DNA of 64,000 nucleotides from Candidatus Eiseniibacteriota bacterium (GTDB lineage Bacteria > Eisenbacteria > RBG-16-71-46): NCBI GenBank assembly GCA_963717935.1, contig CAVQXP010000002.1:192001-256000 (forward strand), given 5' to 3'. Position numbers and translations under genes: made by a program. Numbering within the stretch: the stretch's first letter is position 1; each line of letters opens with the position of its first letter. The notes under the pieces are model-generated. The model saw nothing but the letters and a program-made list of their open reading frames with translations. It made no database searches and was not told the origin of the DNA. This document shows positions 42,604 to 55,865 of the stretch, piece by piece.

Positions 42604-43788
42604 TCATGCCGTCGCCTCCGCAGGATGGAGGATGGGGACAAACGGCTGCCGGCGCCGGGCCACGCTGTGGACGGCGCCGAGCAGCTTGTGCATGCAGGCG
42701 ACGAGCGCGACCTTGGGCAGCTTGCCGCGAGCGCGCAGGCGTTCGTAGTAGGCCTTGAGCCACGGGTTCTTCTGCACTGCGGTCAGGGTCGGCATCCAGA
42801 GGGCCTTGCGCAGCCGGGCGTTGCCGATCGAGGAGCAGCCTGCGCGTCGCGGCTGGTGTTTGCCCGACTGTTTGAGGGCAGGCACGACACCGACGTAGGC
42901 CGCCAGCGTTGCGGGCGAGTGGAAGTCGGCCGGGTTGCCGACCTCGGCGATGATGCGGGCGGCCGTGGTCGGGCCGATGCCATCGATGGTCGTGAGCAGC
43001 GTCCCGACCTCGTGCTCTGCGAGCGTGCACTCGATGTCGCCATCGATCTCGCGCAGGCGGCGGCGCAGCAGGTCCATGTCCTCGCAGCAGTGGTGAACCT
43101 GCAGGCGGTACGGAGGGCCGTGGAAGTGCCCGACCGAGACCCGCGCGGCCTCAATCAGGACCTTCGCGAGTTCGGGGCCCACGACGTGATGCCCGTCGTA
43201 ACGCAGGCGCGCGAGCCGCCCTGGCGCGAGGCCGTGGAACGCCTCGGCCGTGGGGTACTCATGCAGGATCGTGGTTGCCAACGCGCTGTCGAGGCTGTGC
43301 ACGTGACGGGTGAACTCGGGGAACCCCAGGTCCACCAGCCGGTGCAACTGGCGGGTGCGATCGCCGAAGTCCTGTACCAGCCGGTCACGGTGGCGCACGA
43401 GCTCGCGCAGTTCGTCCGTCGCGCGGTCGGGCAGCCGCGTCGCCGCCGGGTGCTTCTGTGACGCAAAGCGGGCGATATTCAGCGCGTCGACCGCGTCGGT
43501 CTTGGTGCGCTCGAGTTCCTCCTGCGCGAACCGGCTCGTCCGCCGCGGGTTCAGCAACGCAATCGCGAAGCCCTCACCGGCGAGCATCGCAAACAGGTTC
43601 TTCCAGTAGTGCCCGGTTGCCTCCATCGCCACCAGCGTGTCGGTGCTGGCCCCCAGCAACTCGCGCATCCGCGCGTAGCCCGCGGCGTCCTCGGCACACT
43701 TCGCGGCGCTCCGCAGCACCGCGCCGGCCTCATCCACGATGGCCACCACGTGCTGCTCCGAGCCGATGTCGATCCCCACGTAACGCAT
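42604..43788 (-). CDS. IS110-family DEDD recombinase/transposase
   Basis: AGGAG RBS; YVGIDIG, MEATGHYW, KTDAVDA (DEDD RuvC fold), TIDGIG, AYVGVVP, KQSGK (catalytic Ser), GNARLR. Confidence 0.97.
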   Translation of the reverse strand: MRYVGIDIGSEQHVVAIVDEAGAVLRSAAKCAEDAAGYARMRELLGASTDTLVAMEATGHYWKNLFAMLAGEGFAIALLNPRRTSRFAQEELERTKTDAVDALNIARFASQKHPAATRLPDRATDELRELVRHRDRLVQDFGDRTRQLHRLVDLGFPEFTRHVHSLDSALATTILHEYPTAEAFHGLAPGRLARLRYDGHHVVGPELAKVLIEAARVSVGHFHGPPYRLQVHHCCEDMDLLRRRLREIDGDIECTLAEHEVGTLLTTIDGIGPTTAARIIAEVGNPADFHSPATLAAYVGVVPALKQSGKHQPRRAGCSSIGNARLRKALWMPTLTAVQKNPWLKAYYERLRARGKLPKVALVACMHKLLGAVHSVARRRQPFVPILHPAEATA

Positions 43789-43830
43789 GCCCGTACTCCT
43801 TACCGACGGGAGTCCCCGGGAGCCTCGGAG

Positions 43831-44010
43831 CCGATGGCCCTGCTCGCGCTTGTGCATGCGAGGACCAGGCCTCTCGATACCGTTCGAGCCCTGACCATCG
43901 GTCGAGGGCGCCGATCTCAGTGACGAGGACAGAGCCTCAGCCCGCGCGGCCCGGCGCCCCTCTCCCGAACCCCGTCCCCGGGAGCCTACCCCCGCCCGAG
44001 GAGCCCGTGT
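43831..44010 (-). ncRNA. Putative bridge RNA (target-binding loop 43904-43962, donor-binding loop 43831-43901); 5' end approximate
   Basis: Two stem-closed internal loops carrying segments that match the donor junction (ACGGTATC, ACAAG) and the insertion site (CACTGAG). Confidence 0.8.
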
Positions 44011-45825: not shown

Positions 45826-46004
45826 CGTTTCGTTCGTCCCCCGGTTCCGCGCGACGTAGGTTCTCTCACGCAGCGTCTGCGGATTCGACATCCAGGTCGA
45901 GGGAACCAGCCGCGATTCGGGCCGCTTGAGCGGTGCCGCTGACGCGGCTGCCGATTTGGCTCCGGCCGGTGGGCGCGGCACATCGCGTCGCCAGCGAGAC
46001 GACG

Positions 46005-46859
46005 ATGAAGCGCACGAACGGCTCCGGCGTGCGGATCGCCAGTCGCAACGGTCTTGTCGCATGCGTCTGGTTGCTCGCGATCTCTCTCCTGTGGATGGCC
46101 ACGTCACCCGCGCGGGCCGACGGCGTGCATGTCGCGCTCGTGCCCGACACGGTGGCCGCGGCCGCGGGCGACACCGTCTACCTCGAGCTCGACGTGACCG
46201 AGGCAGGGGCGCCGTTCAACGCCTTCGACGCCGTCATCGGCTTCGAGCCCTCGGCGCTCACCTTCCTGCCGACCTCCCCGCTCACGCTGCAGGAAGGCTC
46301 GCTCATGACGGGTGCCTGTGCGACCAGCCCCTTCCAGTATTTCGTGGCAGCGGCCGACTCGCTGCTGATCTCGATCGCCATCCAGTGCGCGGGGGTGTCG
46401 CTGACCGGGCCGGGGCAGCTCTACAAGTTGCGCTTCCGCGCCCAGGACGTGCAGCAGGGGACCTGGGTCCACATCCGCCACATCCAGTTCTACGACGCCG
46501 GGATCTACGTGAACCCCGCGTACGCCACGGATGCCTACGTCGTCATCGGCGCGCCCACCGGCGTGGCGGCGCCCGCGGTGCCCGCGGGGCTGAGCCTCGG
46601 CGCCGCGCCGAACCCGTGCCGTTCGGGCACCGTGTTTTCCGTGGGCTCGGACAACGGGGGCGAGCAGTCGTTGTCCGTCTACGACATCACCGGGCGCATG
46701 GTGCGGAGCCTGGAGCGCGGCAGCTTCGCGCCGGGCGCCCGCCGCGTGGCCTGGGACGCCAGGGACAACGCGGGCGGCAGGGTGTCGCCCGGTGTCTATC
46801 AGGTCGTCTTTCGGGCGCCCGGGTGCCAGAGGTGCATCCGGGTCGCCGTCATCCCCTGA
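46005..46859 (+). CDS. Secreted protein: cohesin-like domain plus C-terminal FlgD-Ig-like domain
   Basis: Signal peptide ending ARA; GDTVYLELDV...FDAVIGFEPSALTF...GQLYKLRFRA; C-terminal APNPC...VYDITGRMVRSL...WDARDNAG..VSPGVY. Confidence 0.75.
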   Translation: MKRTNGSGVRIASRNGLVACVWLLAISLLWMATSPARADGVHVALVPDTVAAAAGDTVYLELDVTEAGAPFNAFDAVIGFEPSALTFLPTSPLTLQEGSLMTGACATSPFQYFVAAADSLLISIAIQCAGVSLTGPGQLYKLRFRAQDVQQGTWVHIRHIQFYDAGIYVNPAYATDAYVVIGAPTGVAAPAVPAGLSLGAAPNPCRSGTVFSVGSDNGGEQSLSVYDITGRMVRSLERGSFAPGARRVAWDARDNAGGRVSPGVYQVVFRAPGCQRCIRVAVIP

Positions 46860-47248
46860 GGCCCGGGAAGGTCGGAGAGAGGGAAGGAACCCCGCAGGGA
46901 GCAGCGTGCTGGCACTGCACCAGGGAAGGCATCGCAGGCTCGTGCAACGGAGGTAGGATTTCGTGGTTCCCCCCCTCGGAGCATCCCGGGACACCGCGCC
47001 GGTGAGGCCGTGCGCGGTGGCGGAGCGCGCCCCGCCCTGACCGCGGCCCACGGCCGCCGAACGCGTTTCCGCACTCGCTTCCCTCCTCCAGCCCACGATC
47101 CGGCCTCCGCCGATGGCCGCCGGGCCGGACGGGACCCCCCGGTGCCGCGGAACGTGATCCAGATCCTCGACCCAGGTCCAAAGGGGCCGCCCCGCGGGTT
47201 CCAGGCAGGCATCTCGCGGGCGCCTCGGAGAGGAAAGGAGCACGTTTC

Positions 47249-49432
47249 ATGAGACGTCACCCTCTTCTGCTGGTCATCGCCGTCGTGATCCTGGCGCTGG
47301 GCGCCACTCCCGCGCTGGCCGCTCTCGCTCCGCTCGGCGGACCGCTGGCCAGCCACAGCTGGAGCCAGCGCTTCGAAGAATCGGGCGTCGGCGACTACGA
47401 CCACGTCCAGCTCCACATGATCTCGGGGCCGTCATTCGCCCTGCCCACGGCCCAGAGCGGCTTCAGCGTGAGTGGCTGGGCTCAGGGCTCCGACGACGGC
47501 AGCAACACCACCGCCGACGGTCCGGCCACGGCCTTGATGCAGTGGGACGTCACGTTCTCGGGGACGCAGGCCACGCCCTTCAGCTTCCTGTTCCAGGCCT
47601 GGGACGGAGCGGTGCTCAAGGAGAGCATCATCGCCACCTGGAACGGCTCGGCCTGGAGCTTCGCGGCCGCGCCGTCGGGCGCCTGGCCGGGCGGCGACTT
47701 GCCCTTCTTCGGCGCCGACGAGGTCGTGTCCGTCACGGGCGGGCTGTGCCTGTCGAGCGTGCACACCTGCGTGACGGTGCCGATGATGTTCAACCGCGTG
47801 GACGCGACTCCCGCGCGCGGCATCAGCGTGACCTTCCAGCTGAGCGGCGACCTGGCCCTGTGCGGCGCGGGCATCGTGCAGGGCAGCTGGCTCACAGGCT
47901 ACAGCACCGACTTTCGGGTGGTGGACAACGGGGCCGGCTCCTACACCGTGGACCAGGTCATTCTCGGCCTGCCGTGCGGCGCCATCGCCGGCGGGCAGTT
48001 GTTCACCCTGGACGTCGGCCGGGCGCCACTGGCCGTGGACGGCACCGGGACGATCACGGTGACGGCGGTGGACCTGCGTGACTGCGACAACGCGCCGCTG
48101 CCGGGCGTCGCGGGCGCCCCGGGCCTGATCCCGATCGACTTCACGGCGCCGATCGCCCTGACGGCGCTGGGGGCGTCGCAGGTGAAGACGGGCAACGACA
48201 CCGACGGCACGACCAAGATCACGGTCTCGTGGCCGGCGGTGGAGAGCGGGGCCACGGTGCACGTCTACCGGGCGGGCTTCGGCGGCTATCCCGAGTACGA
48301 CGACGCGGGCGGCGTGGTGCCGTCGTACCCGGGGGTCGGCACCTGGGTGCTGGCCGGGAACGTGACCAGCGGGACCACGCTGGTGGACGAGCCGGCGACG
48401 CGGGACTTCTGGTACTACGTGGCGCTGGTGGAGGACGCCTGCGGGAACGTGGGACCGGTCTCGAACCAGACCGGCGGGACGCTGAACTACCACCTCGGTG
48501 ACGTGGCCGACGGCGTGACGGACTGTGCCGGGAACAACGCGGTGTGGACCGAGGACATCAGCCTCCTGGGTGGCAACTACGGCGTGACGCTGGGGTACCC
48601 GGATGCGCTGGCCTGCCTGGACGTGGGGCCGACGACCAACTACTCGGTGAACGCGCGGCCGTTGACGGACAACAAGGTCAACTTCGAAGACCTGATGATG
48701 TTCGCGATCAACTACAACCTGGTGTCGGGACCGCAGGACGCGCCGCTGCCGGTGGCGGTGGCGACGTCGAACCGGCTGTGGCTGGAGGGCCCGGCGGAGG
48801 TGAGCGCGGGCGCGACGTTCACGGTGCAGGTGCAGGCGGCGTGCGCGGGGGATCTGCAGGGTCTGTCGCTGCAGCTGGCGTGGAACCACGCGGTGGCCGA
48901 GCCGGTTTCGGTGGAGGCCGGCGGGCTGGCGACGCTGCAGAACGGGGTGGTGTTCAGCAGCGGGGCGGGGAACGTGGACGCGGCCCTGCTGGGTGCGAAC
49001 CGCGGGCTGGCGGGCGAAGGGGTGCTGGCGACGGTGACGTTCCGGGCGCTGGCGAGTGGCGCGCCGAACGTGACGCTGGCGAAGGTGGACGCGCGGGACG
49101 CGACGAACCAGCCGGTCGAGCTGGCGGGGGTGAAGCCGGCGGGCCCGGTGACGACGGAGACGGCGCTGATGCCCGCCGCGCCGAATCCGTTCTCGCACAG
49201 CACGACCCTGGGCTTCCGCCTCGCGAAGCCGGGGCCGGTCATGCTGGCGATCTACTCCGTGGACGGGCGGTGCCTGAGGACGCTCGTGGACGAGATGCGC
49301 GCCGCCGGTCCCTGCCGCGTCGCCTGGGACGGGACGGACGAACACGGGAACCCGCTGCGACCCGGGATGTTCTTCGCTCGGCTGGTCACCGGGCAGGAGC
49401 GCCTGAGCCGCACCGTGCTGCTCGTGAGATGA
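47249..49432 (+). CDS. Secreted modular protein: variable N-domain / cohesin-like / FN3-like / dockerin-like / cohesin-like / FlgD-Ig
   Basis: AAGGAG RBS, signal peptide, GDVADG..GNNAVWTEDISLL and DNKVNFEDLMMFA (dockerin-like Ca loops), APNPF...IYSVDGR...WDGTD. Confidence 0.8.
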   Translation: MRRHPLLLVIAVVILALGATPALAALAPLGGPLASHSWSQRFEESGVGDYDHVQLHMISGPSFALPTAQSGFSVSGWAQGSDDGSNTTADGPATALMQWDVTFSGTQATPFSFLFQAWDGAVLKESIIATWNGSAWSFAAAPSGAWPGGDLPFFGADEVVSVTGGLCLSSVHTCVTVPMMFNRVDATPARGISVTFQLSGDLALCGAGIVQGSWLTGYSTDFRVVDNGAGSYTVDQVILGLPCGAIAGGQLFTLDVGRAPLAVDGTGTITVTAVDLRDCDNAPLPGVAGAPGLIPIDFTAPIALTALGASQVKTGNDTDGTTKITVSWPAVESGATVHVYRAGFGGYPEYDDAGGVVPSYPGVGTWVLAGNVTSGTTLVDEPATRDFWYYVALVEDACGNVGPVSNQTGGTLNYHLGDVADGVTDCAGNNAVWTEDISLLGGNYGVTLGYPDALACLDVGPTTNYSVNARPLTDNKVNFEDLMMFAINYNLVSGPQDAPLPVAVATSNRLWLEGPAEVSAGATFTVQVQAACAGDLQGLSLQLAWNHAVAEPVSVEAGGLATLQNGVVFSSGAGNVDAALLGANRGLAGEGVLATVTFRALASGAPNVTLAKVDARDATNQPVELAGVKPAGPVTTETALMPAAPNPFSHSTTLGFRLAKPGPVMLAIYSVDGRCLRTLVDEMRAAGPCRVAWDGTDEHGNPLRPGMFFARLVTGQERLSRTVLLVR
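48164..49155 (+). repeat. ~990-bp near-identical module, copy 1 (copy 2 at 54618-55609)
   Basis: Same sequence at constant offset 6454 from GCGCTGGGGGCGTCGCAGG to GGGCCCGGTGACGAC. Confidence 0.95.
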
Positions 49433-49532
49433 GATTGGAGATCGTGGCCGGGGGGCCCGCAACGGCGGGTCCCCGGCCGAGGGAAGCGACAGGCTTCGGA
49501 GTCCGTTCCAGACCGCAACCGGAGGTTGGCCC

Positions 49533-51779
49533 ATGAAAACCCCTTGGCATGGCATGAAGAACCGCTGGAGCCGCGGGCTCCCGGCGTCCGTCGTGATCCT
49601 CGGCGTGGCGGCCCTCGTGATCCTGGGCGCGGGCAGTGCGCTCGCGTCCATCCAGCCGGTCGGGGATCCGTACGTCTCGGAGAGCTGGACACAGCGCTTC
49701 CAGGAGGACGGTGTCGGCCCGTTCGATCACGTCCAGATCCTGATGGCGACCGGTGGCCCGTTCGAGCAGCCTGCGACGCAGAGCGGCTTCAACGTGGCTG
49801 GCTGGGCGCAGGGCTGCACGAACACGATCGAGAGCAGCGCCGCGGGCCCCGCGACGAGCCTGATGCAGTGGGACATCAGCTTCCAGGGCACGTCGGGGAC
49901 GCCGCTGAACTTCTTCTTCCAGTGCTTCAACGGTGCCACGCTGCTGCAGACCGCGTACGCGCATTGGAGCGGCAGCGGCTGGCTGATCGACAACTTCGTG
50001 CCGGGCACGGCCTCGTGGCCGGGCGGGGAGGTCTGCGGCTTCGTCAACTCCGTCTCGGCGCTCGATCCGCAGACCTGCCTGACCTCGCCCACGCAGTGCC
50101 TGACCGTCCCGGTGGTCGTCATCCGCAACGACGCCACCGCGATCCGGGGCTACAGCGTGACCTTCACGCTCTCGCCCGAGCTGGCGCTGTGCGGTCTCCC
50201 GGGGCTCGCCATCACCCGGGGCGCCTACCTCAGCTCGTACTCGGAGACGGACTACCGCGTGGTCTCCAACCCGGACGGCTCGTACACCGCGGACTGCGTG
50301 ATCCTCGGCGATCCCTGCGGCCAGACGGCTCCGGCCGGGAACCTCTTCAACGTCATCGTGAAGGGCGCCCTCGAGGGCATCGGCAAGCTCACGGTCACCA
50401 ACGTGCTCCTGCGTGACTGCATGAACGAGCCGATCGCTTGCACCTGGGGGCCGCCGATCCCGATCACCGTGGACTTCACCGCCCCGGGCGCCATCGGCGA
50501 CCTGGCGGCGGCGCGTCTGCTGGCGACGGGCCAGGGGACCGGATCGACGCACCGGATCCGCCTCACCTGGAGCGGCGCCGCGGGCACGGTGAGCCTCTAC
50601 CGCGCGCCCTTCGGCAACTACCCCGAATACGACGACGACACGCCCGGCATGCTGCCGCCCGACGCGTCGCTCGCGCCCGGGAGCCCCTGGCAACTGGTGG
50701 CCGGCAACGTCACCTCGCCGTACGACGACCTGCCGCCGGCGCGGGACTACTGGTACTACGTCGCCTTCGTGACCGACGCCTGCGGGAACCGCTCGGCGAT
50801 GTCGAACCGCACCGGCGGCACGCTGGACTACCTGCTGGGCGACGTCAGCGACGGCGTCACGCCCGGGCTGGGCAACAACCGGGTGTTCACCGAGGACATC
50901 TCGCTGCTCGGCACCTACTACGGGCTGCTCGGCGATCCGCAGGTGGACGCGGTCGCGTACCTCGACGTCGGCCCGACCACGAACCACTACATCGACGGCC
51001 GGCCGAAGCCCGACGACATCATCGGCTTCGAGGACCTGATCATCTTTGCCATCAATTACGGCTCCACCCTGCAGGTGCCCATGATGGCCGCCACGCCCGT
51101 CCCGGCCGACCGCGACGAGTTGACGCTCGACGCGCCAGGCGCGGTGCACGCGGGCGAGGTGTTCACGGTACGGCTGCTGATGAAGGGCGCCGGCGACATC
51201 CAGGCGCTCTCGGCGCAGTTGGGCTGGGATGGGGCGATCGCCGAGCCGCTGGGCGTCGAGGCCGGGGACTGGCTCGCGGGCCAGAACGGCGTGGCGCTCT
51301 CCAGCGGTCCGGGCAACGTGGACGCGGCGCTGCTCGGCCTGCGCGGCCTGGCGCTGAGCGGTCAGGGCACGCTCGCGGTCGTGACGTTCCGCGCGCGCAC
51401 CGACGGGGACCCGAAGATCGGGCTCGCGCGGCTCGTGGCGCGTGACGCGCAGAACCAACTGCTGGCGCTGGCCGCGCCGGTGGCGAACGCCGGGGCGGGC
51501 TTCACGACCGGGCTGATGCCGGCCGCGCCCAATCCGTTCCAGAACACCACGGCACTGGGCATCAGCCTGGCCAGGGCCGGACCGGTCGAGGTGTCCATCT
51601 ACTCGGTGGACGGCCGCCGGGTGAAGACGCTGTTCAAGGGGACGCGAGAAGCCGGCTCGTTCCGCATCGCGTGGGACGGTACCGACGAGAGTGGGAACCG
51701 GATGCAACCAGGCGTGTTCTTCGCGCGCCTGGTGACCGCGTCCGGCCAGTTCAAGCGGACGGTGTCCTACCTGCGGTAG
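49533..51779 (+). CDS. Paralogue of the preceding protein with the same domain order
   Basis: Shared N-domain (SWTQRFQEDGVG), GDVSDG..GNNRVFTEDISLL, DDIIGFEDLIIFAINY, APNPF C-terminal domain. Confidence 0.8.
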   Translation: MKTPWHGMKNRWSRGLPASVVILGVAALVILGAGSALASIQPVGDPYVSESWTQRFQEDGVGPFDHVQILMATGGPFEQPATQSGFNVAGWAQGCTNTIESSAAGPATSLMQWDISFQGTSGTPLNFFFQCFNGATLLQTAYAHWSGSGWLIDNFVPGTASWPGGEVCGFVNSVSALDPQTCLTSPTQCLTVPVVVIRNDATAIRGYSVTFTLSPELALCGLPGLAITRGAYLSSYSETDYRVVSNPDGSYTADCVILGDPCGQTAPAGNLFNVIVKGALEGIGKLTVTNVLLRDCMNEPIACTWGPPIPITVDFTAPGAIGDLAAARLLATGQGTGSTHRIRLTWSGAAGTVSLYRAPFGNYPEYDDDTPGMLPPDASLAPGSPWQLVAGNVTSPYDDLPPARDYWYYVAFVTDACGNRSAMSNRTGGTLDYLLGDVSDGVTPGLGNNRVFTEDISLLGTYYGLLGDPQVDAVAYLDVGPTTNHYIDGRPKPDDIIGFEDLIIFAINYGSTLQVPMMAATPVPADRDELTLDAPGAVHAGEVFTVRLLMKGAGDIQALSAQLGWDGAIAEPLGVEAGDWLAGQNGVALSSGPGNVDAALLGLRGLALSGQGTLAVVTFRARTDGDPKIGLARLVARDAQNQLLALAAPVANAGAGFTTGLMPAAPNPFQNTTALGISLARAGPVEVSIYSVDGRRVKTLFKGTREAGSFRIAWDGTDESGNRMQPGVFFARLVTASGQFKRTVSYLR

Positions 51780-51858
51780 GCGGCCGCGGTCGGCGGGGCC
51801 CGGAGCGCTCCGGGCCCCGCGCAGACCCCTGCAGCCGCTCCGACGAGAGGAGGCACAC

Positions 51859-52407
51859 ATGACGCGCTTGCCACGACCCGCTGTCCTTGCTGCCGTGTTC
51901 GCCCTGGCCGTCCTGGCAGCGACGGGGGGGGCCGCGGCCGGGGTCACCGTCTCCGTCGCTCCGCCGGAGACGACCGTCACGGTCGGCACCGATTTCGTGC
52001 TGCGCGTCGTGACGGCCGCCTTCCCGGACCTGAAGGCCTATCACCTCGTCCACTCGTTCGGCAGCGCGATCACCGCCAGCCTGGGCGTGGACCCCGGGGA
52101 CGTGCTCACGTCCACCGGACTCCCGTTCACGTCCTACGCGGTCGCGGACAACTCGCTGCCCACGGGGACCATCACTTACGACGCGGCCATGCTGACCGGC
52201 AGCACGCAGGGGCCCGGCATCCTGGGTTTCTACCGCTTCCACGCCGTCGCGGAGGGCGACACCCCCGTGCAGTGCGAGGCCGTGGACTTCCGCGATTCGC
52301 TCAACACCCAGACGCTGCCGACCTGTGTGAGCGGCCTGGTGCACGTCCTGGGCCCGGTCCCGGCGGGCCCATCGACGTGGGGGAGGATCAAGACGCTCTA
52401 CCGCTGA
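51859..52407 (+). CDS. Small secreted cohesin-like protein with a C-terminal STWGRIKTLYR tail
   Basis: GGAGG RBS, signal peptide, VTVGTDFVLRV...PGDVL...TYDAAML...GILGFYRFHA. Confidence 0.75.
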   Translation: MTRLPRPAVLAAVFALAVLAATGGAAAGVTVSVAPPETTVTVGTDFVLRVVTAAFPDLKAYHLVHSFGSAITASLGVDPGDVLTSTGLPFTSYAVADNSLPTGTITYDAAMLTGSTQGPGILGFYRFHAVAEGDTPVQCEAVDFRDSLNTQTLPTCVSGLVHVLGPVPAGPSTWGRIKTLYR

Positions 52408-52562
52408 CGCCGAAGCACCAGTCGTTCCGAGTCGTCGTCCGTTTCGTCGCAGGGAGGAGGGCACCATCGCCCCATGAGATCGAGTGATTCCATCCAGACC
52501 ACGCCGAGGTCACCGCCCCGGCGGAAGTGATCGAGGTTTCAGAAGCAGCACTCCGCGATCGT

Positions 52563-52648
52563 CCGCAGCCTGGTGCAGACGAAGTAGCAGGTCGGTTTTG
52601 AACGAGAGACGCGCGGAAGGCGGGCCGCGGGGATCCCGGGGTCCGCCG
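52563..52648 (+). repeat. ~85-bp direct repeat of the 3' end and downstream hairpin of gene 52968-55865 (second copy 55841-55926)
   Basis: CCGCAGCCTGGTGC(A/T)GACGAAGTAGCAGGTCGGTTT(T/C)GAACGAGAGACGCGCGG... in both places, offset 3278. Confidence 0.9.
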
Positions 52649-52967
52649 GAGAAGGAACCCGGTCCGGCTCTGCATGCGCAGCAGGCAGAGCCGCGACCCG
52701 CACGACCACGGCCGTCTGAGGAGGGCTTGCCCATCGAAAACGCCAGCCATGCTGATGCAGGACCGAGGTCACCGCTGAAGGAGTGCGGATCCTGCGGTCC
52801 CTGTCGCTCCGCGATCGTCCCGCAGGTCCGGCCCTGCCTGTCGACCCCCGATCGCAGATGTACCGGCAACTCCCGATGCCGCGGAGCGTCGTTCCACCCC
52901 TCCAACGCGAGGCCGCCCGCCCAGGGCCGCATGCCCTGCGGCACGACCGCGTGAAAGGACACGTTCC

Positions 52968-55865
52968 ATGTCTCGTATCGGTGTGTTCCTGATCCTCTGC
53001 GTATTCCTCACCTGCGCGTTCGGCGTGGTCGCCCAGGCCGCCGCCCCGCGCGCCGTGCCCTACCCGGGCATCCCGGTTGCCCCAAGCGTCACCGCGAATG
53101 CGCTGCTGAAGATGGCGCCGCAGGATGTGGTGAGCACGACCGGTGTCTTCATCGACCCGGTCGCGGCAGCACTGGCGATCGGCAATCGTCTGGTGGATCT
53201 GCAGTCCGACGTGACCGAGGACAACGCCGGCAATGGCGATCCCGACGTCCCGCTCGACGGGAACGACGGCGGCTGGGGCTGGAACGTCACCGGCCTGGCC
53301 CACCACAGCAGCATTGCCTCCTCCAAGAACCTCTACGGTCCCATCACCCGCGGTCTGGCCGAGGCGGCCATCTTCACGGGCGCCGCGCGGCTCGGCGTCG
53401 GGGTCGGGGATGTCTTCCCCGGGATCTCCCAGCTGGGGTACACGGGGATCTACGACGCCGACATCGTGTTCGGCCTCCTCCGCTGGGGCGCGTACACGGG
53501 GAATGCGGCGCTGCGGGACTCCGTGAAGAACCGGCACGACGTCACCATGGCGGACTTCGTCACGGCGAACCCGGGCATGAACGGCGCGGCGGTGCGGGCC
53601 CGCATCGTTCGCAACGGCCGCGCCAGTCAGGGGCTGGTGGGGATGTGGCCGTGGGACATCCACTTGCTCGCCAACGACTGTGACGCTCTGGCGGCGGGGT
53701 ATCCCGGCAGCGCGGCGGTCTACGGGACGGAGATGGACTCCATCTCCCAGGTCATCATGGACGACATGGGCGGGCTGCTCGGCACGCCGTACTTCGATCC
53801 CACGGACTTCGGCCAGCGCTACCACCAACTCGGCATCGCCGGAGCGCTGCGGGTCTTCGATGCCTCGCAGCGCACGGACGACAACACGCTGGCCGTGGCG
53901 ATGAAGGACTCGTTGCTGGGCGGCCAGCAGCCGGACGGCTCGTGGGGCGTCTCCTACGACGGCGTCTTCTACCCGCAGGACTACCAGTCCACGGCCTACG
54001 CCGTGCTCGCGCTCAACGAGTATGCGGAGCGGCACGGTGACGCGACCGCGCAGCTGGCGGCGTGGAAGGGGCAGCAGTACCTGCTCGCACTCGTCCCCAC
54101 GACGGGCGTGCTGGACGACGGCTACGGTGAGTACGCCGAGCTCGACGCGGAGATCCTGCAGGCCCTGCTGACCGGCGACGACGTCACGCCCGTGGCGCCC
54201 GCGACCTGCATCACGCCGACGTACGCCTGCGTGCAGGTTCCGGTGAACTTCAACCGCACCGACGCCACTCCGGTGCGCGGCTACAGCGTGACCCTGACGC
54301 TGTCGGCGAACCTGGCACTGTGCGGCGCTGGCATCGTGGAGGGCGGCTACCTGAGCAGCGTCGGCGGGACCACCTATCAGGTGCTCAACCCGAGTCCCGG
54401 GGTCTACACGGTGGACTGCGCCATTCTGGGCGTGAGCACCGGGGCGACCGGTTCGGGGACGCTGTTCACGCTCAACCTCGCCGGCGCAGTGACCGGCACG
54501 GGCACGGTGACCGTGAACTCGGTGATCGTGCGCGACCTGCTCAACGCGCCGGTTTCGGCCATCCCCGGTCCGCCGGCGTCGATCACCATCGACAACACGG
54601 CGCCGGTGGCGATTGCCGCGCTGGGGGCGTCGCAGGTGAGGACGGGCAACGACACCGACGGCACGACCAAGGTCACGGTGTCGTGGCCGGCGGTGGAGAG
54701 CGGGGCCACGGTGCACGTCTACCGGGCGGGCTTCGGCAGCTATCCCGAGTACGACGACGCGGGCGGTGCCGTGCCATCGTACCCGGCGGTCGGCAGCTGG
54801 GTGCTGGCCGGGAACGTGACCAGCGGGACCACGCTGGTGGACGAGCCAGCGGCGCGGGACTTCTGGTACTACGTGGCGCTGGTGGAAGACGCCTGCGGGA
54901 ACGTGGGACCGGTTTCGAACCAGACCGGCGGGACGCTGAACTACCACCTCGGTGACGTGGCCGACGGCGTGACGGACTGTGCCGGGAACAACGCGGTGTG
55001 GACCGAGGACATCAGCCTCCTGGGTGGCAACTACGGCGTGACGCTGGGGTACCCGGATGCGCTGGCCTGCCTGGACGTGGGGCCGACGACCAACTACTCG
55101 GTGAACGCGCGGCCGTTGACGGACAACAAGGTCAACTTCGAAGACCTGATGATGTTCGCGATCAACTACAACCTGGTGTCGGGACCGCAGGACGCGCCGC
55201 TGCCGGTGGCGGTGGCGACGTCGAACCGGCTGTGGCTGGAGGGCCCGGCGGAGGTGAGCGCGGGCGCGACGTTCACGGTGCAGGTGCAGGCGGCGTGCGC
55301 GGGGGATCTGCAGGGTCTGTCGCTGCAGCTGGCGTGGAACCACGCGGTGGCCGAGCCGGTTTCGGTGGAGGCCGGCGGGCTGGCGACGCTGCAGAACGGG
55401 GTGGTGTTCAGCAGCGGTGCGGGGAACGTGGACGCGGCCCTGCTGGGCGCGAACCGCGGGCTGGCGGGCGAAGGGGTGCTGGCGACGGTGACGTTCCGGG
55501 CGCTGGCGAGTGGCGCGCCGAACGTGACGCTGGCGAAGGTGGACGCGCGGGACGCGACGAACCAGCCGGTCGAACTGGCGGGGGTGAAGCCGGCGGGCCC
55601 GGTGACGACCTCGTTCGCGCGGCCGATGCCGAACCCGTTCCATGGGACGACGGTGCTGAGCTATGCGCTGGCGAAGGGCGGGGCGGTGGAGCTGGCGGTG
55701 TACGGGGTGGACGGGCGGAAGGTGGCGGTGCTGGCGAGCGGGGTGCAGGAGGCCGGGAGCTACCGGCTGACCTGGGACGGCGCGGGAGCGCGGCCCGGGC
55801 TGTACTACGCGCGTCTGACCACGCCGGAAGGCAGGTTCACCCGCAGCCTGGTGCTGACGAAGTAG
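52968..55865 (+). CDS. Secreted modular protein: helical (prenyltransferase/squalene-cyclase-repeat-like) N-domain plus cohesin/FN3/dockerin/cohesin/FlgD-Ig modules
   Basis: Signal peptide, DGGWGW and QQPDGSWG..STAYAVLAL repeats; C-terminal half nearly identical to that of 47249-49432; PMPNPF C-terminal domain. Confidence 0.8.
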   Translation: MSRIGVFLILCVFLTCAFGVVAQAAAPRAVPYPGIPVAPSVTANALLKMAPQDVVSTTGVFIDPVAAALAIGNRLVDLQSDVTEDNAGNGDPDVPLDGNDGGWGWNVTGLAHHSSIASSKNLYGPITRGLAEAAIFTGAARLGVGVGDVFPGISQLGYTGIYDADIVFGLLRWGAYTGNAALRDSVKNRHDVTMADFVTANPGMNGAAVRARIVRNGRASQGLVGMWPWDIHLLANDCDALAAGYPGSAAVYGTEMDSISQVIMDDMGGLLGTPYFDPTDFGQRYHQLGIAGALRVFDASQRTDDNTLAVAMKDSLLGGQQPDGSWGVSYDGVFYPQDYQSTAYAVLALNEYAERHGDATAQLAAWKGQQYLLALVPTTGVLDDGYGEYAELDAEILQALLTGDDVTPVAPATCITPTYACVQVPVNFNRTDATPVRGYSVTLTLSANLALCGAGIVEGGYLSSVGGTTYQVLNPSPGVYTVDCAILGVSTGATGSGTLFTLNLAGAVTGTGTVTVNSVIVRDLLNAPVSAIPGPPASITIDNTAPVAIAALGASQVRTGNDTDGTTKVTVSWPAVESGATVHVYRAGFGSYPEYDDAGGAVPSYPAVGSWVLAGNVTSGTTLVDEPAARDFWYYVALVEDACGNVGPVSNQTGGTLNYHLGDVADGVTDCAGNNAVWTEDISLLGGNYGVTLGYPDALACLDVGPTTNYSVNARPLTDNKVNFEDLMMFAINYNLVSGPQDAPLPVAVATSNRLWLEGPAEVSAGATFTVQVQAACAGDLQGLSLQLAWNHAVAEPVSVEAGGLATLQNGVVFSSGAGNVDAALLGANRGLAGEGVLATVTFRALASGAPNVTLAKVDARDATNQPVELAGVKPAGPVTTSFARPMPNPFHGTTVLSYALAKGGAVELAVYGVDGRKVAVLASGVQEAGSYRLTWDGAGARPGLYYARLTTPEGRFTRSLVLTK
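54618..55609 (+). repeat. ~990-bp near-identical module, copy 2
   Basis: Matches 48164-49155. Confidence 0.95.

Follow-up and report, generated by a model that had tools for sequence, protein, structure and literature searches.

Among high-affinity plug-and-socket pairs, the cohesins and dockerins of cellulosomes are the classic case, and protein engineering makes wide use of them. A 64,000-nt window of a Candidatus Eiseniibacteriota genome (GCA_963717935.1; 3.02 Mb in 5 contigs, 93% complete) carries five genes, named P1-P5, that belong to a widespread non-cellulosomal variant of this pair, and the novelty of the variant lies in the fusion of plug and socket into a single invariant cassette ahead of a sorting domain. 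The three large proteins, P2, P3 and P5, share the order head, cohesin A (CohA), fibronectin type III (FN3)-like domain, dockerin-like module (Doc), cohesin D (CohD) and a C-terminal domain (CTD) of the kind used by type IX secretion systems (T9SS), and the two small proteins, P1 and P4, carry a single cohesin each. An earlier note on this DNA had read the cluster as a candidate self-assembling extracellular scaffold. The reading that we favor, tentatively and with somewhat less than an even chance of being right, is that these proteins would form a stalk in which the dockerin clasps the cohesin of its own chain, with exchange to free sockets, and which displays heads rather than building a cellulosome. 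The genes and their domains are listed below, all coordinates being positions in the window.

46005-46859, + strand: P1, 284 aa; signal peptide, CohD-type cohesin at about aa 44-153, T9SS-type CTD at about aa 200-284
47249-49432, + strand: P2, 727 aa; signal peptide, N-domain without known family, then CohA-FN3-Doc-CohD-CTD
47714-48145, + strand: cohesin A of P2; CohA profile 199 bits, VIA superposition, no Pfam match
48146-48460, + strand: FN3-like or X-like beta-sandwich of P2; AlphaFold2 (AF2) strands 159-246, 2w1n as top Foldseek match
48461-48727, + strand: dockerin-like module of P2; two loop-helix repeats with inserted loops, from AF2 of the module alone and Foldseek/VIA
48764-49111, + strand: cohesin D of P2; Pfam Cohesin 24.9 bits, predicted partner of the dockerin helices
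49163-49429, + strand: T9SS-type CTD of P2; FlgD_ig 25.0 bits (below 27), model residues 487-578 on the PorU CTD
49533-51779, + strand: P3, 748 aa; domain order as in P2, from profiles, FlgD_ig and TIGR04183
50043-50480, 50481-50798, 50802-51065, 51108-51458 and about 51510-51776, + strand: CohA, FN3, Doc, CohD and CTD of P3
51859-52407, + strand: P4, 182 aa; signal peptide, CohD-type cohesin at 51967-52305, tail STWGRIKTLYR
52375-52404, + strand: last 10 codons of P4, the tail
52968-55865, + strand: P5, 965 aa; signal peptide, head of about 420 aa, cassette, from Pfam, TIGR04183 and profiles
54174-54599, 54600-54914, 54915-55181, 55218-55565 and about 55596-55859, + strand: CohA, FN3, Doc, CohD and CTD of P5
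52563-52648, + strand: relic between P4 and P5, with the final codons from a large gene (...RSLVQTK, stop) and a GC-rich hairpin

The five open reading frames (ORFs) lie on the + strand between 46005 and 55865, have a strong codon-position bias (GC at third positions 0.91-0.94) and are real, conserved genes; the earliest possible start of P1 is a GTG at 45933. Read by eye, each N-terminus runs from a basic to a hydrophobic to an Ala-rich stretch. The domain order that the earlier note had described for the three large paralogues is confirmed by a 578-aa module profile that matches P2, P3 and P5 end to end (E 1e-225 to 1e-259) and by an AF2 model of P2 residues 150-727, built on an alignment of 76 homologues, which has five domains (pLDDT 93.6, pTM 0.77). 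Both sandwiches, A and D, are cohesins, as their likeness to that family had suggested. With VIA, cohesin A of the P2 model superposes on CaCohA2 (6kgc_A) at Z 16.5 and a root-mean-square deviation (rmsd) of 2.4 over 138 of 144 aa, and all of the first 43 rows are cohesins. Cohesin D exceeds the gathering cut-off of Pfam Cohesin (PF00963, 24.1 bits) in P2 and in P5 (31.8 bits), and the CohA profile matches CohD at E 6e-6; Pfam Cohesin has no match at E <= 1 for any cohesin A, for P3 or for P4. The FN3-like identity of the third domain is suggested indirectly by the models, in that the top Foldseek match of the whole P2 model is 2w1n, the Coh-FN3 pair of Clostridium perfringens GH84C (E 5.9e-10). 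The junctions of this domain to both neighbors have a fixed length. Against PDB sequences, the whole-module profile matched FlgD, cohesin and PorU chains and no dockerin.

The heads of the three large proteins may differ less than had been claimed. The head of P5 looks unrelated to the others, in keeping with a variable N-terminal domain, but the N-domains of P2 and P3 resemble paralogues when their translations are read by eye. An atlas look-up of the P5 head gave 0.76-0.81, all below 0.9, to alpha/alpha toroid, GH127/GH88-like and prenyltransferase-like proteins, which is a lead only; the same head had no match among PDB sequences, and the look-up for the P2 N-domain gave no usable match. 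No glycoside hydrolase (GH) or carbohydrate-binding module (CBM) family was matched in P1-P5 by Pfam at E <= 1, in agreement with the earlier view that no glycoside hydrolase is recognizable.

The plug of the cassette is the duplicated loop motif, which in the alignment takes the forms D-V-x-D-G ... D-N-x-V-x-T-x-D and D-V-G-P-T-T ... T-D-N-x-x-x-F-E-D. When the module of P2 was folded alone with AF2 (pLDDT 73), helices formed at 34-42 and 79-87, each after a loop. A VIA search of 48,161 chains (Z >= 2) returned dockerins in 15 of 16 rows, the best being the NagH dockerin 2ozn_B (Z 5.8, rmsd 2.3, 55 aa), and in a Foldseek search with the isolated module 15 of 18 rows were dockerins (best E 0.042), with X-dockerin chains at the head of the list. 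We accept the motif, on the strength of these models, as a divergent dockerin fold with inserted loops. A pair of cysteines, located in loop 1 and at the beginning of repeat 2, behaves as a unit in all 22 of 22 sequences, being complete in 9 and wholly absent in 13, and this covariation fits a disulfide staple.

The domain at the end of the chain, which had been described as a FlgD-Ig domain, is a T9SS-type sorting domain. FlgD_ig (cut-off 27) is found at four C-termini, those of P1, P2, P3 and P5, and lies above its cut-off in P1 (34.5 bits) and P3 (40.8). TIGR04183, the model of T9SS type A sorting domains (cut-off 23), scores 23.4 in P3 and 28.9 in P5 and remains below the cut-off in P1 (21.6) and P2 (13.1). 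In structure, the P2 CTD aligns with the PorU CTD (6za2_A) at Z 11.3 and rmsd 2.4 over 91 aa. The same sorting model has 45 matches across the genome, 35 of them above the cut-off. A T9SS-like export route is therefore likely, with its machinery partly recognized: PorU is encoded in the genome (487 bits, cut-off 420), a PorV-like gene adjoins it (79.6 bits against a cut-off of 250), and SprA-like pieces lie in neighboring frames (129, 111, 74 and 64 bits, each below 200). The component models were trained on Bacteroidota, and the host lies outside that phylum. Two giant ORFs of 2463 and 1625 aa, at C4:947350-950220 and C4:1689051-1690205, give partial matches to the PorU/C25-peptidase model, at 110 and 84 bits; both end in a CTD and neither is near the cluster.

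The invariance of the cassette becomes apparent among relatives. The loci of eight relatives contain 20 dockerins, every one of them with CohD-CTD after it, and cohesin A is present in 0-3 copies. The junction between FN3 and dockerin measures 14-15 aa in all 76 sequences. Among 122 newly fetched library representatives, 71 read CohA-FN3-Doc-CohD-CTD and 24 read FN3-Doc-CohD-CTD; the FN3-like module precedes the dockerin in 117, and the other 5 begin inside or just before the dockerin. FN3-Doc-CohD-CTD is thus an invariant cassette. The module search found at least 556 proteins, whose heads include Beta_helix, FG-GAP/VCBS, He_PIG, GSDH, NHL and others, so that the swappable heads imagined from three paralogues hold good across hundreds of relatives. 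In a genome-wide census of the architecture, the dockerin profile matched P2, P3 and P5 only, against 8 cohesin-like modules in the same genome, and in the library a dockerin-only profile matched 1121 clusters at 50% identity (E <= 1e-3). By their titles, 74 loci from species-representative genomes divide into 42 Eisenbacteria/Eiseniibacteriota, 5 of Krumholzibacteria type, 23 unnamed bacteria and 4 others. Some relatives depart from the single-cassette plan: a 1854-aa ORF (L026:11745-17306, genome G015) has two cohesin A copies and a CTD with no dockerin, a 2037-aa ORF (L027:3568-9678, genome G024) has three cohesin A copies before the cassette, both being scaffoldin-like, and library protein P0122 has four FN3-Doc units.

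The same survey bears on whether cohesin A, P1 and P4 instead recruit separate dockerin-bearing enzymes in the manner of a cellulosome. This is very improbable. Dockerin enzymes and a cohesin scaffoldin with a T9SS CTD have been inferred elsewhere, in the report on Candidatus Stygibacter (PMC8542988), some relatives of the cassette proteins have Beta_helix or GSDH heads, and one further ORF of the genome has a weak Pfam dockerin match. Set against this, the dockerin profile matches nothing in the genome beyond the three large proteins, in which, as in P1 and P4, no GH or CBM family was matched, and in 132 of the best 150 library representatives the dockerin is followed by 200-280 aa (median 235), the length of the CohD-CTD tail; 15 of the other 18 are proteins of at most 450 aa and probably fragments. 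Since no enzyme-borne dockerin of this type turned up, the system is not a cellulosome. The further ORF, C4:1216852-1218333 (L014), contains the only Pfam-type dockerin/EF-hand pair of the genome, at a weak 18.4-22.7 bits (Dockerin_1 at C4:1217443-1217568). Its start is ambiguous, it ends in the same CTD, positions 450-570 of the module profile cover the stretch just before that CTD, and the translation there resembles a cohesin-type sandwich by eye. Because of this ending and this profile coverage, the ORF may be a second, more canonical Doc-Coh-CTD tail rather than an enzyme-borne dockerin.

Support for the plug meeting its socket comes from complex prediction, which was performed for one pair, FN3-Doc of P2 against cohesin D of the same chain, given as separate chains. 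The model scored 0.62 (0.62, 0.55 and 0.65 in the individual runs) and the best control 0.34, which supports the dockerin-cohesin contact that had been proposed for structure modeling. Among solved complexes 116 of 157 came up to the mark used, and among mismatched pairs 2 of 215; these rates are approximate here because custom alignments were used. At least 93% of the contacts are the same from run to run, and partner pLDDT is at least 84. Contacts were predicted for dockerin residues 288-297, 312-318 and 329-342 only, with CohD residues 388-391, 417-436 and 465-472, so that both dockerin helices and their adjoining loops would pack against one cohesin face; no residue of 150-255, the FN3-like module, enters the confident contacts of the model. 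Within the predicted contact, CohD residues D428, A430, G433, R467 and N471 are 91-100% conserved, and the interface appears family-wide rather than paralogue-specific. The model thus suggests that the dockerin helices bind cohesin D.

From these results we would draw the following mechanism. The cluster proteins would be exported by a type IX-like secretion system to the cell surface, where each large protein would present a common stalk: a variable head, cohesin A, an FN3/X-like module rigidly joined to the divergent dockerin, a flexible linker, cohesin D and a cleavable T9SS CTD. The first partner of each dockerin would be the cohesin D that comes next in its own chain, and the clasp that the two would make, presumably dependent on Ca2+, would stiffen the stalk near its anchor. 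By default each chain would capture its own plug, which could still be exchanged to free sockets, and the dockerin-free sockets P4, P1 and cohesin A would compete for the same plug, which could tether or cross-link stalks at the surface. The function would be the display of binding or enzymatic heads. The case for a clasp within the chain draws on the strict 1:1 adjacency of dockerin and cohesin D, on the linker between them, which varies from 14 to 26 aa beside fixed-length junctions elsewhere, and, indirectly, on the pTM of the five-domain chain; dockerin and CohD being always adjacent across such a linker, their contact may be intramolecular. It also draws on a tract in which the two domains travel together. 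The DNA of P2 (48174-49170) and that of P5 (54628-55620) show 93-100% identity over about 1 kb, of which about 500 nt match perfectly, and this tract spans the end of FN3, Doc and CohD, with the flanking CohA and CTD only 64-79% identical. The difference between tract and flanks points to recent gene conversion between the two paralogues inside the cluster.

A number of results weigh against this proposal and deserve to be set out together. For the dockerin itself, P1-P5 have no match to Dockerin_1 (PF00404) at E <= 1, NCBIfam has no dockerin family for the loop motif, phmmer with the dockerin segment found nothing among PDB sequences beyond a chance row (E 1.4), and hhalign of the dockerin alignment with the one Pfam-type dockerin ORF of the genome gave a probability of 0.5%. 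The likeness of the duplicated loops to dockerins that the earlier note had recognized therefore stands as to fold and fails as to the family model. Absolute fold scores are low, as the models for so small a domain would be expected to give, and it is their specificity for dockerins that is striking. A canonical dockerin has two 12-residue Ca2+-binding loops, and since the putative loops here carry insertions of about 6 and about 10 residues, calcium binding is unproven. For the contact, conservation at the predicted interface is barely above that of the rest (p about 0.049 for CohD and 0.37 for Doc), and since cohesin-dockerin complexes have already been solved, the passing model may reflect memory or likeness. 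Moreover, the complex model does not discriminate between an intramolecular and an intermolecular contact. For export, the GldK match is sub-threshold (89 against 350 bits) and the same model also matches controls without a T9SS, and the GldL and GldM models have no match in the 93% complete genome, with the control genomes silent too, so absence of these two components is not shown.

Several of these results would also be expected if the cohesin-like and dockerin-like domains were structural relics that no longer bind each other, serving as a rigid spacer between head and anchor or with sandwiches that bind glycans. The non-canonical loops without a family match, the weak interface conservation and a model pass that can mirror mere likeness to solved complexes would all fit, and the cohesin fold is a common beta-sandwich. 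This account is nevertheless quite improbable, because the dockerin is better conserved than any of the other four domains (mean column conservation 0.70, the others having 0.56-0.65), because its helix faces and the CohD residues named above are highly conserved in the predicted contact, and because no control in the complex modeling scored above 0.34.

The within-chain clasp has to be considered together with the sockets that have no plug of their own. P1 matches Pfam Cohesin at E 3.4e-4 (21.3 bits, below the cut-off), and an alignment of P1-type proteins (A5) matches the module over CohD and CTD by hhalign with a probability of 99.7% (E 2e-26). The cohesin of P4 is matched by the CohD profile at E 4e-6, and the P4-type alignment (A6) matches the CohD of the module with a probability of 97.7% (E 1.6e-12). 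The earlier description of two small genes with one sandwich and a C-terminal tag was right about the single cohesins and about P4, which lacks a T9SS CTD and ends in a 10-residue tail, and wrong about P1, whose supposed tag is a full CTD of about 85 aa. Both are conserved companions of the cassette. Among 41 genomes (the source genome and 40 relatives) the module occurs in 25; P1-type genes occur in 24 of these 25 and P4-type genes in 13, and neither occurs in any of the 16 module-negative genomes. These tallies include an unpublished genome, G026, without which they become 24/40 for the module, 23/40 for P1-type and 12/40 for P4-type genes. The counts come from relatives that are not independent of one another. 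In the loci of the eight relatives, P1-type genes and P4-type genes (with tail) adjoin cassette genes.

The tail of P4 appears to be a signal in its own right. In 14 ORFs of the genome the last residues before the stop fit the pattern [ST]WGx[ILVM]Kx[LIF]YR, and among genome ORFs of at least 80 aa the looser pattern WGx[ILVM]Kxx[YFW] gives 14 matches, all 14 at the extreme C-terminus and followed by R and a stop. The tail-bearing ORFs are mostly small; by eye, about 12 of the 14 have their strongest hydrophobic stretch after a Met, in the manner of a signal peptide, and 5 of the 14 have a gene with a CTD no more than 3 kb away. The 10 residues match no model of Pfam or NCBIfam, and Pfam recognizes little in the 14 ORFs. 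That P4 is a truncated pseudogene of a CTD protein was considered and rejected, because the tail stands at the exact end of 14 ORFs and is retained in the P4 orthologues of four relatives, which makes it a C-terminal tag in repeated use and no remnant of a longer protein. It has the look of a signal for sorting or anchoring, hitherto undescribed, that parallels the T9SS CTD.

With three plugs and 8 cohesin-like modules in one genome, and with P1-type and P4-type genes tracking the cassette among relatives, extra sockets are a part of the proposed mechanism. The same facts can be taken further, in the direction of the lattice with single-cohesin adaptors or caps that the earlier note had suggested, to an obligate assembly between molecules in which each dockerin plugs the cohesin of another chain and a daisy-chain or lattice is nucleated by CTD-anchored P1 and ended by P4. 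Solved cohesin-dockerin pairs are intermolecular. The genome offers no other dockerin of this type to fill the surplus sockets, P4-type proteins keep the aligned interface residues D, A, L, R and N (with D428, A430, R467 and N471 in P4), the predicted interface is shared by the whole family, and the modeled contact is one between separate chains. Relatives with 2-3 tandem cohesin A copies, some with dockerin-less CohA-CTD proteins, would also be at home in such a lattice. We nonetheless consider obligate assembly somewhat unlikely: adjacency and a flexible linker permit self-capture, which would compete with chain growth, and the large proteins, each with a sorting domain of its own, do not depend on a cohesin as anchor. 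The most ambitious version of the idea is that FN3-Doc-CohD is a self-complementary link with which type IX cargo plugs together into Ca2+-dependent fibers or a lattice on the outer membrane, P1-type proteins nucleating them and P4-type proteins, which would travel by the separate 10-residue signal, ending them, and that this is general to Eisenbacteria and Krumholzibacteria. Such a scheme is, in our judgment, doubtful. The clasped stalk with occasional exchange remains the reading that we prefer.

Comparison with known systems clarifies what is shared and what is distinct. The closest cellulosomal counterparts are the type II cohesin/X-dockerin dyads (CohI9-X-DocII of Clostridium thermocellum CipA, 3kcp and 4fl4; Acetivibrio cellulolyticus 4u3s), which have the same order of cohesin, Ig-like X module and dockerin; 3kcp_A and 4fl4_I align over residues 4-343 of the P2 model. 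In both, the Ig-like module stands directly before the dockerin, here with a junction of fixed length. Unlike those dyads, the cassette has a second cohesin and a T9SS sorting domain in the same chain, inserted loops with no Dockerin_1 match, and an FN3-like module for which the model predicts no cohesin contact. Type II cellulosomal scaffoldins further differ in having enzymes and an SLH anchor, neither of which is found here, and the host is an Eisenbacterium, a group that we take to be diderm and to belong to the Fibrobacteres-Chlorobi-Bacteroidetes (FCB) group. The best structural matches are non-cellulosomal pairs of C. perfringens (Coh-FN3 of GH84C, 2w1n; the NagH dockerin with the NagJ cohesin, 2ozn). 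In that organism plug and socket reside on different enzymes and are joined in trans, whereas here both are on one non-enzymatic chain beside a secretion tail. Candidatus Stygibacter (Cloacimonadota) shares an FCB-group host and cohesin and dockerin modules with a conserved surface-attachment CTD; in Williams et al. (2021), dockerins end separate enzymes and cohesins form the scaffoldin (PMC8542988), and here the dockerin was never seen apart from its own cohesin and CTD in the loci and library matches examined. The non-cellulosomal cohesin 2xdh of Archaeoglobus fulgidus aligns at Z 15.0 and is an example of the fold outside cellulolytic organisms, in a different lineage and without a T9SS tail. 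The occurrence of the fold outside cellulolytic organisms was reportedly surveyed by Peer et al. in 2009. Finally, the CTDs resemble T9SS type A CTDs (TIGR04183; Por_Secre_tail, PF18962; PorU, 6za2) in being about 85 aa at the extreme C-terminus, and the system differs from known T9SSs in a host outside Bacteroidota and in machinery of which a part went undetected with Bacteroidota-trained models.

We found no paper joining Eisenbacteria or Krumholzibacteria with cohesins or a T9SS, and among titles and abstracts of the literature on cohesins and dockerins that are T9SS-linked, noncellulosomal or intramolecular, none describes the cassette. It sits under hundreds of different heads in two uncultured phyla. 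A pair that closes on itself would be a stalk clasp of a new kind, and one that opens to its neighbors would be a new way of building a polymer on the cell surface; in either case the cassette helps to approach the question of how adhesins or enzymes are presented by these bacteria of soil and sediment. A lattice, if true, would be a principle for surface polymers that differs from those of pili, S-layers and cellulosomes. The module would also add to the cohesin-dockerin toolbox a divergent dockerin class that the present Pfam, NCBIfam and PDB-sequence searches missed.

The genomic setting of the cluster is one of housekeeping genes, with Lon, an IS110-family transposase and adenylosuccinate synthetase (purA) upstream and a 2-hydroxyacid dehydrogenase, a class-V aminotransferase and a histidine kinase downstream. 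The cluster itself has a history of rearrangement. The relic at 52563-52648 is 92% identical to the end of P5 (55841-55926), and by sequence we take it to be the footprint of an earlier rearrangement. In a relative that is about 94-95% identical, one contig of DNA run X2 and one of RNA library X3 join 47507 to 49402 and so skip 1894 bases, nearly all of P2; close strains therefore do not all have the same number of large paralogues. Among the contigs of such a relative in library X3, one of depth 42.8 starting at 45964 covers P1-P4, the P5 contigs have depths of 61.7-98.8, and the purA flank has a depth of 3.7. Run X2 has a single contig of depth 59 that spans the purA flank and P1-P4, with P5 pieces at 50-97, and runs X1 and X15 contain short or low-depth pieces only. 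Contig depth is a poor measure of expression and gives a weak hint that P1-P5 are expressed. GC-rich hairpins 3' of the genes are visible in the alignment only, and a scan for promoters and terminators found no more sites than in shuffled sequence. The IS110-family transposase (DEDD_Tnp_IS110 and Transposase_20; 42604-43857, - strand) lies between lon and purA, 2 kb upstream of the cluster. Elsewhere in the window, a complete rRNA operon (16S, two tRNAs, 23S, 5S) at 4819-10222 accounts for its low-GC stretch.

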